Below are positions 2,429 through 61,634 of a stretch of DNA of 64,000 bases, piece by piece. The notes beneath the pieces are model-generated. The model had not been told where the DNA came from. It worked only from the letters and a program-made list of their open reading frames with translations, and made no database searches. The DNA is taken from assembly GCF_988242995.1 (NCBI RefSeq), contig NZ_OZ547043.1. The stretch is one strand, 5' to 3'. Both the position numbers and the translations under genes were made by a program. Positions within the stretch are counted from its first letter, which is position 1; every line of letters starts with the position of its first letter.

Positions 2429-3190
<762 letters not shown>

Positions 3191-3347: not shown

Positions 3348-3507
3348 GCTAAAATTGTGCACTCAACACAGTGATTATTTAGCGTAAAACCTGATGAAAA
3401 AACAATCTTTATGTAACGATTGTGTGATGATGTGGATACAAAAAATTTACTTAATCAGCTGGAGATAGCAGATGGATGCACTAAATAAGTGCGTTGAGGT
3501 GGGCTGC

Positions 3508-3538
3508 AAAACAAAACGGCCTCCTGTCAGGAAGCCGC
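3508..3538 (-). terminator. Rho-independent terminator downstream of dps
   Basis: Minus strand forms the hairpin GCGGCUUCC-UGACA-GGAGGCCGU followed by UUUUGUUUU, about 40 nt after the dps stop. Confidence 0.55.
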
Positions 3539-3578
3539 TTTTATCGGGTACTAAAGTTCTCCACCATCAGCGATGGAT

Positions 3579-4226
<648 letters not shown>

Positions 4227-4342
4227 TTAGTTATATTGATAAGAACAATTCTTATTTATTGGCTCGCCAGGAATTTTCGGAATAAATATGCTTTTGCATA
4301 ATTCGATACATAAAGACGGTGTAGAGGAAAAGTAGCGAAAAA

Positions 4343-4372
4343 TTCTGCATGGTTATGCATAACCATGCAGAA
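4343..4372. terminator. Perfect 30-bp palindrome (TTCTGCATGGTTATG/CATAACCATGCAGAA); probable rhtA terminator
   Basis: Exact reverse-complement symmetry read from the sequence. It starts 9 nt downstream of the rhtA stop on the minus strand and is followed there by UUUUUCGC. Confidence 0.6.
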
Positions 4373-4380
4373 ATGTAAAT

Positions 4381-5268
4381 TTAATTAATGTCTAATTCTT
4401 TTATTTTGCTCTCTTTGCGTACTGTCAGCGTAGACCCCATTGAAGCGGCGATGATAGCGCCGAGCGCCAGCAGCTGTATGGGTGTCAGTGTTTCTCCGAG
4501 GAAAATCATCCCGGAAACGGCAGCCAGCGCCGGTTCCATGCTCATCAGCGTACCAAATGTCCGTGTTGGCAAACGGGTGAGGGCAATCATTTCCAGCGAA
4601 TAAGGCAGAGCGGTCGAGAGAATAGCGACCGCCAGACCCAATGGAATAACCGACCAGTGCCAGAGTGCTTCACCAGCCTGAAGCGCTCCAATTGGCACGA
4701 AAATTAACGCTGCAATCAACGAACCAATTGCCACCGTCGCAGGGCCATGTTCCGCTCCTGCGCGTTGCCCACTTAAAATGTAAATAGCCCAACAAGCCCC
4801 GGCCCCCAGAGCCAGCGCACAGCCGGTTAAATCGACATGGGAAACGTCTTGCCCCAGCGGTAGCAGGAACCACAGACCAAGAACCGCCAGAACAACCCAG
4901 ACGAAATCTACCGGGCGACGAGAAGAGAACAGCGCCACCGCCAGTGGTCCGGTGAACTCCAGCGCCACCGCAATACCCAGCGGTACCGTCTGAATAGAAA
5001 GATAAAAAAGATAATTCATCCCCCCCAGCGAAACGCCGTAAAACAACAGCGGTAACCGCTGCTCTTTGGCAAAGCGCAGTCGCCATGGCTTAAAGAACGC
5101 GATGAGGATCAGCGTTCCTAATGCCAGACGCAGCGCAGTGACACCCGGTGCGCCCACCAGAGGAAAAAGTGACTTAGCTAACGAGGCTCCACCCTGAATA
5201 GACGCCATGGCAACGAGCAATATGACTATTGGTAACCAGACCGGCATTTTACGTAATGAACCAGGCAT
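4381..5268 (-). CDS. rhtA: Threonine/homoserine exporter (DMT superfamily)
   Basis: Multi-pass membrane ORF; start taken at MPGSLRKMPVWLPIV... (295 aa), the second Met of the track ORF. Matches RhtA. Confidence 0.9.
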   Translation of the reverse strand: MPGSLRKMPVWLPIVILLVAMASIQGGASLAKSLFPLVGAPGVTALRLALGTLILIAFFKPWRLRFAKEQRLPLLFYGVSLGGMNYLFYLSIQTVPLGIAVALEFTGPLAVALFSSRRPVDFVWVVLAVLGLWFLLPLGQDVSHVDLTGCALALGAGACWAIYILSGQRAGAEHGPATVAIGSLIAALIFVPIGALQAGEALWHWSVIPLGLAVAILSTALPYSLEMIALTRLPTRTFGTLMSMEPALAAVSGMIFLGETLTPIQLLALGAIIAASMGSTLTVRKESKIKELDIN

Positions 5269-5620
5269 CCTTTCTCCCACAAATATCTAGACTTAAGTAA
5301 AGCGTGGAGTGTACTGGATATACCCAATGCTGGTTGAGCATTTGTTGAAAAAATTTTCCCCCGTTTTGACTAAAATGCGCCAGGATTGATGGAATCATTA
5401 GTCTGGTGATTAGGAATAATCTGGATGAATGACAGGGAAAACATGCGTAATACTTACGCAGTTCTCTGAAAAAGTGATTTAAATTTAGATGGATAGCGGC
5501 GTATGGAAACGTTCTGTTACATGAAATGGCCCGTTAGACATCACAAATCGCGAAGAGTTTCCCATTAATTTTTGATATATTTAAAACTTAGGACTTATTT
5601 GAATCACATTTGAGGTGGTT

Positions 5621-6136
5621 ATGAAAAAAATTGCATGTCTTTCAGCACTGGCCGCAGTTCTGGCTTTCACCGCAGGTACTTCCGTAGCTGCGACTTCTAC
5701 CGTAACTGGCGGTTACGCACAGAGCGACGCTCAGGGCCAAATGAACAAAATGGGCGGTTTCAACCTGAAATACCGCTATGAAGAAGACAACAGCCCGCTG
5801 GGTGTGATCGGTTCTTTCACTTACACCGAGAAAAGCCGTACTGCAAGCTCTGGTGACTACAACAAAAACCAGTACTACGGCATCACTGCTGGTCCGGCTT
5901 ACCGCATTAACGACTGGGCAAGCATTTACGGTGTAGTGGGTGTGGGTTATGGTAAATTCCAGACCACTGAATACCCGACCTACAAACACGACACCAGCGA
6001 CTACGGTTTCTCCTACGGTGCTGGTCTGCAGTTCAACCCGATGGAAAACGTTGCTCTGGACTTCTCTTACGAGCAGAGCCGTATTCGTAGCGTTGACGTA
6101 GGCACCTGGATTGCCGGTGTTGGTTACCGCTTCTAA
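5621..6136 (+). CDS. ompX: Outer membrane protein X
   Basis: MKKIACLSALAAVLAFTAGTSVA signal peptide followed by a beta-barrel sequence ending ...GVGYRF; 171 aa. Confidence 0.95.
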   Translation: MKKIACLSALAAVLAFTAGTSVAATSTVTGGYAQSDAQGQMNKMGGFNLKYRYEEDNSPLGVIGSFTYTEKSRTASSGDYNKNQYYGITAGPAYRINDWASIYGVVGVGYGKFQTTEYPTYKHDTSDYGFSYGAGLQFNPMENVALDFSYEQSRIRSVDVGTWIAGVGYRF

Positions 6137-6151
6137 TCACTTCGGTGATAT

Positions 6152-6185
6152 AAAAAATCCGCCTCTCGGGGCGGATTTTTTGTTT
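6152..6185. terminator. Bidirectional rho-independent terminator between ompX and opgE
   Basis: AAAAAATCCGCC-tctcg-GGGCGGATTTTTTGTTTT: 8-bp GC stem flanked by an A-run and a T-run. Confidence 0.75.
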
Positions 6186-36819: not shown

Positions 36820-36833
36820 AATTAGAATAGTGT

Positions 36834-36859
36834 TAGTACCCCTTAATCAAGGGGTACTA
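36834..36859. other. Perfect 9-bp-stem inverted repeat (TAGTACCCC-ttaatcaa-GGGGTACTA) at the dgcI / TA-module junction
   Basis: Read directly from the sequence; no flanking U-run on either strand, so the terminator role is uncertain. Confidence 0.4.
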
Positions 36860-36888
36860 ATGAATGTGGTAAATCATTTGCAAACATT

Positions 36889-53020: not shown

Positions 53021-53923
53021 GTGAAAATTGCCATATTGTCCCGGGATGGAACGCTCTATTCGTGTAAGCGGCTGCGTGAAGCCGCTATACAGCGCGGTCA
53101 CCTGGTTGAAATTCTTGATCCGCTTTCTTGCTACATGAACATAAATCCTGCGGCGTCTTCTATTCACTACAAAGGCCGCAAGTTACCCCATTTTGACGCA
53201 GTGATCCCGCGTATTGGCACCGCCATTACCTTTTATGGGACGGCGGCACTGCGCCAGTTCGAGATGCTGGGGAGCTATCCGCTCAATGAGTCGGTCGCCA
53301 TTGCCCGGGCGCGTGACAAATTGCGTTCCATGCAACTGCTGGCGCGTCAGGGCATCGACCTGCCTGTCACGGGCATTGCGCATTCGCCGGATGATACCAG
53401 CGATTTAATCGACATGGTCGGTGGTGCGCCGCTGGTGGTCAAGCTGGTTGAAGGCACGCAGGGAATTGGTGTCGTGCTGGCGGAGACGCGCCAGGCGGCG
53501 GAAAGCGTGATTGACGCTTTCCGCGGTCTGAACGCGCATATTCTGGTGCAGGAATATATCAAAGAGGCGCAAGGGTGCGATATCCGCTGTCTGGTTGTTG
53601 GCGATGAAGTGGTCGCTGCGATTGAACGGCGGGCGAAAGAGGGCGATTTTCGTTCCAATTTGCATCGTGGCGGCGCGGCAAGCGTCGCCAGTATCACACC
53701 ACAGGAGCGTGAAATCGCGATAAAAGCCGCGCGAACGATGGCGCTGGACGTTGCTGGTGTGGATATTCTGCGTGCTAATCGCGGGCCGTTGGTGATGGAA
53801 GTGAATGCGTCGCCGGGGCTGGAAGGAATAGAAAAAACCACCGGTATCGACATCGCGGGTAAAATGATCCGCTGGATCGAACGCCACGCTACGACAGAAT
53901 ATTGCCTGAAAACGGGTGGTTAG
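53021..53923 (+). CDS. rimK: Ribosomal protein S6 glutamate ligase (ATP-grasp)
   Basis: 300-aa ORF starting at a GTG ([18 protein letters not shown]...); matches RimK. Confidence 0.95.
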
Positions 53924-61573: not shown

Positions 61574-61609
61574 TAAAAAAAGACGGACAACTTAGTGGGT
61601 TGTCCGTCT
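61574..61609 (-). terminator. Rho-independent terminator at the end of the artPIQM operon
   Basis: Minus strand: AGACGGACAAC-ccactaa-GUUGUCCGUCU followed by UUUUUUUAUUU. Confidence 0.7.
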
Positions 61610-61634
61610 TCATTATAAGAATTTATGCACTATG

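Follow-up and report, generated by a model that had tools for sequence, protein, structure and literature searches.

A perfect 30-bp palindrome between rhtA and dps as the probable DNA image of a conserved stem-loop at the 3′ end of the rhtA message

A perfect 30-bp palindrome located between rhtA and dps in Escherichia coli is best explained, with a probability of roughly 70%, as encoding an RNA stem-loop with which the rhtA message ends. The structure of the hairpin, its conservation through compensatory change, the strand bias of the mismatches it tolerates and its tight coupling to the rhtA stop codon are direct observations; from them we infer that rhtA transcripts end at the hairpin, and likewise the shares of intrinsic and Rho-dependent termination in this. 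In the strain considered here the anatomy of the element (stem of 13 bp, loop of 4 nt, U5 tail) resembles that of a canonical intrinsic terminator. Comparison across the Enterobacteriaceae indicates that what is conserved family-wide is the hairpin, while the U tract comes and goes, and in the family at large the hairpin is probably a 3′-end-forming and protecting structure, perhaps backed by Rho. It is an element of an ordinary kind.

The window, i.e. the whole stretch of 64,000 nucleotides that was analyzed, is from contig NZ_OZ547043.1 of RefSeq assembly GCF_988242995.1. Gene coordinates in it (Table 1) derive from the RefSeq annotation of identical or near-identical E. coli records. The intergenic region is 100% identical to that of E. 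coli strain PCN033 and 97% identical to that of K-12, and the counterpart of the hairpin in MG1655 is at 849172-849201. Eight nucleotides separate the rhtA stop codon from the start of the palindrome. With the TATACT -10 hexamer (4129-4134) as reference, the palindrome extends from approximately -222 to -251 relative to the dps start, i.e. about 235 bp upstream, and the center of the hairpin is about 225 bp upstream of the -10 itself. The labels ‘-10’ and ‘OxyR site’ for the conserved blocks are ones that we take from published knowledge of the dps promoter. dps is among the most tightly growth-phase-regulated genes of E. coli, and a terminator or insulator 220 bp upstream would define where its regulatory region starts. 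The original prediction had the palindrome lying close to that region; it is indeed upstream of dps, but at a distance that puts it beyond the IHF and Fis sites, which are within about 120 bp of the dps promoter by the positions given in PMC5553809.

Table 1. Positions, in the window, of the palindrome and of the genes and signals around it
Feature	Position	Strand	Basis
glnH	2429-3175	minus	RefSeq annotation
dps	3579-4082	minus	RefSeq annotation
Conserved core of dps promoter	4129-4183	minus	Cross-genus alignment of intergenic region
Extended -10 of dps, GGTGCTATACT	4129-4139	minus	Conserved block
OxyR-type dyad CTATT..GATAGG..ATAGC	4153-4183	minus	Conserved block
U/C-rich, G-poor stretch after hairpin; candidate rut-like Rho-loading region/back-up terminator	4303-4342	minus	Base composition
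Tail after stem, UUUUUCGCUAC / UUUUUCGC / UUUUUCGCUACUUUUCC, U5 tract	4332-4342	minus	Terminator scan and fold
Palindrome/hairpin of rhtA 3′ UTR	4343-4372	minus	Inverted repeat TTCTGCATGGTTATGCATAACCATGCAGAA
rhtA stop codon UAA (4381-4383), then 8-nt spacer AUUUACAU before stem	4373-4383	minus	
rhtA (threonine/homoserine exporter)	4381-5268 including stop; coding sequence 4384-5268	minus	ORF list and RefSeq annotation
ompX (divergent)		plus	RefSeq annotation

A repeat finder returns the palindrome as two 15-nt arms, 100% complementary and with zero spacer, which bears out the exact self-complementarity first described for it. No other zero-spacer palindrome in the 64-kb window has arms longer than 7 nt, the next longest having 7-nt arms, and by our own arithmetic the chance expectation for perfect 30-mer palindromes is approximately 64000 x 4^-15 = 6e-5. 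With up to three mismatches allowed there is one match in the actual window and none in 100 shuffles. The palindrome is real and strongly non-random, far beyond chance. In the rhtA-sense (minus-strand) RNA it becomes a 13-bp stem, UUCUGCAUGGUUA / UAACCAUGCAGAA, closed by a 4-nt UGCA loop, with a minimum free energy of -18.7 kcal/mol (z = -4.2) that none of 200 shuffles equals. These dimensions, the position downstream of a gene and the location on its coding strand are those of an intrinsic terminator stem-loop (about 5-14 bp with a loop of 3-8 nt), and in a terminator scan the hairpin is the top terminator-like site within 3400-5700. With five G-C pairs among the 13 (38% G+C) its stem is A/U-rich for a terminator. 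As to the stem having been called unusually long and perfect, it is the longest among the terminator-like hairpins of the window, but no outlier since the others have perfect arms of 10-12 bp, and the DNA palindrome is perfect because the UGCA tetraloop happens to be self-complementary. Three TGCA tetramers occur at 10-bp spacing. A terminator for the opposite strand was considered and set aside: the plus-strand RNA has the same stem followed by the tail AUGUAAAU, and no gene converges on the palindrome. A search of Rfam with the hairpin gave only sub-threshold noise (RUF4, scaDm46E3, ctRNA_p42d and STnc70), far below gathering scores.

The sequence 3′ of the stem is where the alleles differ. 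A U-rich tract directly follows the stem in the window's allele only, and just 20 of about 5366 E. coli genomes contain the exact 60-mer of the window, so the U5 tail is a rare allele. In the majority E. coli allele, shared by K-12 and E. coli B, the stem is followed by UUUCUCGC (UUUCUC). B2 strains have lost the outermost A (GCAGA-UUUUCUCGC) and their tail is (A->U)UUUCUCGC, and the GTDB representative of E. coli has AAUUCUUGC. Other genera have AAUAUUC after the stem with approximately three U's among eight bases; the cross-genus context is UAUU(C/U)-stem...stem-(G/A)AAUAUUCC, U's preceding the stem and A's (AAUA) coming after it. When U-tail scores are calculated with the published recursion, the ompX terminator has 5.4, the dps terminator 4.3, the U5 allele of the window 3.9, the E. 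coli B2 allele 3.6, the K-12/majority allele 3.0, and other Escherichia, Citrobacter and Salmonella 1.4-2.0. As most E. coli have only a weak U tract and other genera have none, canonical intrinsic termination cannot be the function that is conserved family-wide. The U-run that the original prediction placed on the minus strand is therefore present here (UUUUUCGC) but is not a conserved feature, and the proposal that the element terminates rhtA divides in the same way: a hairpin at the rhtA 3′ end with intrinsic-terminator anatomy in this strain speaks for it, the lack of conservation of the U-run against it.

Conservation of the stem is of a different order. The 30-mer is present in 5365 of 5426 complete E. 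coli genomes with variable flanking bases, and is under purifying selection there as judged from that comparison. It has one locus in each of the 5365 genomes (two ‘places’ being both strands of one palindrome). Among 80 rhtA loci from other species of Enterobacteriaceae, which formed the comparative set, the exact 30-mer is confined to Escherichia. Nevertheless a hairpin of 10-16 bp is present 1-15 nt past the rhtA stop codon in about 75 of the 80, with stems that differ and loops of 3-10 nt, in Escherichia, Citrobacter, Salmonella, Enterobacter, Kosakonia, Buttiauxella, Leclercia, Atlantibacter and others. In E. albertii the arms are TTTTGCA...TGCAAAA, a double compensatory change from C-G to U-A that leaves the palindrome perfect, and in some loci the arms are wholly different (ACCGTGG/CCACGGT, CCGCATC/GATGCGG or GCCGG/CCGGC). 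An RNAalifold consensus on an unguided MAFFT alignment of 48 diverse sequences has 10 pairs, all 10 with compensatory double changes. For the 13-pair stem, 91.6% of cells are paired versus a shuffled mean of 73.5% (none of 500 shuffles reaches the observed value) and 31-45% with slid partners; compensatory double changes occur in all 13 pairs tested, with 111 cells changed on both sides versus 27 in shuffles, and though these covariation figures are not to be taken as probabilities, the sequences being related, the variety of pair types is still large. The element thus has the compensatory base pairing of a conserved structured RNA.

The same comparison bears on whether the dyad might serve a dimeric transcription factor as its operator for control of dps or rhtA. 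Its perfect symmetry, the three TGCA tetramers with their 10-bp spacing and a half-site, TTCTGCATG, common to Escherichia, Citrobacter, Salmonella, Enterobacter and Lelliottia, would suit such a site. However, half-sites are separated by anything from 0 to 10 nt, and several genera (Kosakonia, Buttiauxella, Leclercia, Atlantibacter and others) have both arms swapped for unrelated but mutually complementary sequences, whereas an operator is expected to keep its half-site at a fixed spacing. There is also only the one locus per E. coli genome, and operators are not usually found where this dyad is, past the end of the rhtA coding sequence and 235 bp upstream of the dps start. A metagenome scan for TTCTGCATG-N(0-12)-CATGCAGAA yielded at least 120 stretches, and 8 of the 80 examined are rhtA-dps loci; in the other 72, on contigs with a G+C content of 0.35-0.72, tblastn found neither rhtA nor dps. 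We take these 72 to be chance hairpins in unrelated organisms, so that the scan, not a strong test, gives no evidence for further sites. An operator is accordingly a most improbable explanation, and the suggestion of a protein-binding dyad finds no backing in the variable spacing, the wholesale compensatory replacement of arms and the single locus per genome. A dispersed repeat of the REP/BIME type was likewise rejected, the many copies that this calls for being replaced by one locus in each of 5365 genomes and one match in the window. With REP/BIME elements the palindrome shares its extragenic position at a gene 3′ end and an ability to stabilize upstream mRNA, but it is single-copy and has no Rfam family match; it also appears to lack similarity to the REP consensus.

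The element is in fact already in print, with another interpretation, as an inverted repeat upstream of dps described by the Ozoline group. A ‘30 bp inverted repeat’ of the distal dps regulatory region, footprinted by Dps, was reported by Melekhov et al. 2015 (PMC4433220) and Antipov et al. 2017 (PMC5553809), at the center of a region 216-281 bp upstream of Pdps (PMC5553809). Those positions match the -222 to -251 computed here and the element is identical; there it is treated as a structural DNA target of Dps, while its conservation as analyzed here points to rhtA-sense RNA. The text of PMC4433220 has no occurrence of ‘rhtA’ or ‘terminator’. On the proposal of these authors the repeat would act as DNA, possibly extruded as a cruciform under negative supercoiling, and as a preferred contact of Dps would influence dps promoter topology and autoregulation. 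Dps does protect the region in vitro, inverted repeats are over-represented at Dps sites, and loss of dps lowers the signal of a dps promoter-gfp fusion 1.5-fold (all PMC5553809). The Escherichia palindrome is moreover perfect with an A/T-rich center, its DNA hairpin form folds at -13.3 kcal/mol, and the intergenic length is rather constant. On the other side, the footprints are weak, with few protected bands at 5-fold excess and mainly DNA-end binding (PMC4433220), and the authors themselves see interference with Fis, at the proximal site, as the main cause of the reporter effect (PMC5553809). A repeat of this type should be near-perfect with a very short spacer and strand-symmetric substitutions; perfection is limited to Escherichia, and outside that genus there are non-palindromic spacers of 3-10 nt.

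Whether substitutions are strand-symmetric was addressed by scoring the inverted repeat in a strand-symmetric manner, every non-Watson-Crick pair being penalized equally, and only then classing the internal mismatches. A G:T mismatch is a wobble pair in the rhtA-sense RNA, and A:C is a wobble only in the antisense RNA. In the 80-locus set there are 29 G:T or T:G mismatches versus 4 A:C or C:A and 6 of other kinds. Counting unique arms, the numbers are 21 G:T versus 4 A:C (binomial p about 9e-4), and by our own count of independent events about 13 versus 4. A fixed 70-nt region folds better as sense in 47 loci and as antisense in 30 (Wilcoxon p = 0.03). We consider the support that this gives to strand-specific tolerance of G:U to be moderate. 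The excess of G:T over A:C speaks for selection on the rhtA-sense RNA, not on double-stranded DNA, a cruciform or a protein operator, and it is to this RNA that the comparative data point as the target of selection. For a DNA structure contacted by Dps such an asymmetry is disfavored.

The location of the hairpin with respect to its two neighbors is informative in the same regard. The gene order rhtA-dps is kept in 79 of the 80 loci, so that synteny seldom parts the two genes, and the intergenic length is fairly constant at about 300 bp. The distance from the rhtA stop codon to the hairpin varies by approximately 14 nt, whereas the hairpin is anywhere from 180 to 322 bp away from the dps -10 (median 223). 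The latter distance clusters at 222-226 bp but shows no helical periodicity over its full range, and the idea of phasing with the dps promoter was rejected. In one genome (L074) dps is absent and glnH is about 750 bp past rhtA, and yet the hairpin is still 8 nt after rhtA. In a more distant rhtA-dps pair, whose RhtA is 63% identical and whose genes are 142 nt apart, the rhtA homolog has after it a small hairpin of the canonical AAA-stem-UUU form, AAACCGGC-loop-GCCGGTTT. A search with RhtA protein for homologs in broken synteny returned close relatives only. Of several RhtA homologs in other contexts the one inspected, L212, has no obvious hairpin downstream; these are probably paralogous EamA transporters and so weak evidence. 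The fixed distance to the rhtA stop codon and the persistence of the hairpin without dps favor its belonging to rhtA rather than dps. Since the hairpin stays with the rhtA stop rather than with the dps promoter, and mismatches are asymmetric, a primary role as a DNA contact for Dps is unlikely. That the conservation can be explained by the RNA of the neighbor gene should temper the structural reading of the repeat as a Dps-binding target, and dps promoter constructs with or without the repeat are to be interpreted with an rhtA RNA role in mind.

If the palindrome is, as we favor, the image of an rhtA 3′ stem-loop, the likely course of events in this strain can be outlined. Once RNA polymerase has passed the rhtA stop codon, the nascent RNA would fold into the 13-bp hairpin with its UGCA loop, and the UUUUU directly after it would provide the standard signal for factor-independent termination. 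Most rhtA transcripts would then end a few nucleotides past 4343, at about 4335-4342 on the minus strand, and the hairpin left at the 3′ end would shield the message from 3′-to-5′ exonucleases. Transcription ended there would not run into the dps promoter about 220 bp downstream, and insulation of dps from read-through, one of the roles first proposed for the element, would be a reasonable consequence of the hairpin. In most relatives the hairpin is probably either a weak or non-canonical terminator, or a stable end for transcripts that terminate further downstream, plausibly by Rho, and are trimmed back to it.

The likeness to intrinsic E. coli terminators extends to a stem-loop just past the stop codon on the coding strand, the U5 found here, stem and loop sizes in the usual range and a location between co-oriented, independently regulated genes. 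Where rhtA differs is in its A/U-rich stem, in a U tract that varies among E. coli and is missing from other genera, in which A's occupy the place of the U tract of a terminator, and in a self-complementary loop that makes the DNA a perfect palindrome. Among the entries listed in the Term-seq tables of Adams et al. 2021 there is no mapped rhtA 3′ end near MG1655 849160-849200, the listed ones being the dps terminator at 848340 (minus) and, next, 850293 (plus); the stretch from the dps terminator to the 5′ region of ompX is empty in them. Neither was rhtA found in the supplementary tables of that work that were examined, including those for Rho-dependent (bicyclomycin) 3′ ends; low rhtA expression or incomplete tables may account for the gap. 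TERMITe supplements contain no match for the rhtA 3′ end, and literature searches returned no paper on rhtA together with terminator and dps, with bicyclomycin, or with ProQ, Hfq or RIL-seq.

The frequent lack of a U tract makes it necessary to consider that Rho terminates rhtA on C-rich, G-poor RNA downstream, with exonuclease trimming back to the hairpin, which would then serve only as a protector of the 3′ end. We regard this as possible though considerably less probable; it is a serious variant for most species and less so for the U5 strain. Conservation of the hairpin even though most genera are without a U tract would fit it well. In 2018 Dar and Sorek reportedly placed Rho-dependent 3′ ends at stem-loops to which exonucleases had trimmed the RNA back. 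C exceeds G over the first 60 nt past the hairpin in 71 of the 80 loci, with a ratio of approximately 2:1 for about 150 nt. In the window, however, this skew is limited to the first 40 nt, where there are 11 C's and 4 G's, and composition is balanced thereafter; designation of the stretch as a Rho-loading region or back-up terminator is suggestive only. Here the tail is UUUUU and its score is near that of the dps terminator, for which reason intrinsic termination is expected, and a literature search found no bicyclomycin or Rho data for rhtA. The precise ends of intrinsic termination and the diffuse ones of Rho-dependent termination are contrasted by Dar and Sorek 2018 (PMC6061677). The rhtA locus resembles transcripts with Rho-dependent ends and protective stem-loops in having, in most genera, a stable gene-end hairpin that lacks a U tract, with RNA past it in which C tends to exceed G, and in that the hairpin rather than the tail is conserved; it differs in the proper U tract of this strain, and the Rho dependence of rhtA is putative.

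Some features of the stem and its flanks go beyond what the preferred reading accounts for. The base of the stem, UU...AA, is near-invariant (44 of 48), many genera have AAUAUUC past the stem, and an extra outer GGCC/GGCC helix extends the structure in some Enterobacter and Lelliottia lineages. Together these suggest a further constraint, e.g. that a protein binds there or that the termination or processing machinery favors certain sequences. As neither termination nor exonuclease protection needs the UU...AA base and the AAUAUUC tail, there could be a specific recognition site, for instance for a 3′-end RNA chaperone of the ProQ/FinO type; another thought is a bifunctional element that is a terminator as RNA and, as extruded DNA, recruits Dps. 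Such additions to the preferred reading are quite unlikely. Were the bifunctional version true, rhtA transcription would be linked to dps promoter topology via transcription-driven supercoiling, and this in Escherichia, the only genus where the palindrome is perfect and A/T-centered.

The rhtA gene is an engineering target for threonine production, and an element that ends or stabilizes its message may be of some practical use in that connection. From the perspective of terminator evolution the locus is a modest natural example of U tracts changing while the hairpin stays fixed, with three tail alleles in E. coli and none in sister genera, and these rhtA tail alleles could serve to measure what a U tract contributes to a conserved 3′ stem-loop. 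The region past the stem is also a site of mobile element insertion, as at least two E. coli strains have an IS1 between the hairpin and dps, in one of them 5 nt past the stem.

The tail that follows the rhtA hairpin, the 30-bp inverted repeat at 4343-4372, varies within Escherichia coli. The window carries a rare allele, U5: only 20 of about 5366 genomes of the species contain the exact 60-mer spanning 4323-4382, and most of the genomes have UUUCUC after the hairpin. B2 strains have UUUUCUC, in which the last A of the stem has been converted to U. These allelic differences among E. coli genomes show that the hairpin is fixed while the U tract next to it turns over. In four of the loci fetched from other species, from lineages of Enterobacter and relatives (L034, L039, L054 and L068), the hairpin is itself lengthened within the first 50 nt past rhtA by an outer GGCC/GGCC helix joined across a small internal loop, and the resulting structures reach -30 kcal/mol.

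The length of the spacer between rhtA and dps is remarkably constant, being 296-309 bp in most genera (4083-4380 in the window, compared with the 80 loci L004-L083 from other species), yet from the hairpin to about -130 of dps its sequence is mostly unconserved. Going from the hairpin towards dps, two conserved blocks precede the OxyR-type dyad of the dps promoter. GCATATTTATTCC has partial complementarity (inverted repeat I3) to the centre of the palindrome, and AATAAGAATTGTTC is immediately upstream of the 65-120 bp region of dps upstream DNA that covers the IHF site (PMC5553809). Two E. coli genomes, represented by loci L003 and L086, have independent insertions of IS1 with the rhtA hairpin on one side and dps on the other. 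In strains of this kind the hairpin and the dps promoter have been separated naturally. In L086 the end of IS1 is 5 nt past the hairpin, its inverted repeat beginning directly after GCAGAATTTCT.

Elsewhere in the window, the element between the convergent ompX and opgE is a textbook bidirectional terminator, flanked by A6 and T6, and the 3′ end of ompX has been mapped to it (Adams 2021). At the dps terminator a very strong 3′ end is recorded (848340, minus strand; Adams 2021). Its hairpin gives weak, sub-threshold Rfam matches to ctRNA_p42d (26.9 bits) and STnc70, which most likely reflect generic similarity of a hairpin plus U-tail. There are also further long perfect inverted repeats.

Features of the rhtA-dps interval and other inverted repeats (window positions unless stated)
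Feature	Position	Strand	Remarks
U5 tail of rhtA hairpin	4332-4342	minus	
Conserved block GCATATTTATTCC	4279-4291	minus	about -160 of dps
Conserved block AATAAGAATTGTTC	4243-4256	minus	about -125 of dps
IS1 insertion, locus L003	3225-3922 (L003 positions)		
dps terminator hairpin	3507-3542	minus	
AAAAAATCCGCCTCTCGGGGCGGATTTTTT	6152-6181		between ompX and opgE
Perfect inverted repeats	61580-61610, 36833-36860, 53498-53524		arms 11-12 nt, loops 4-7 nt
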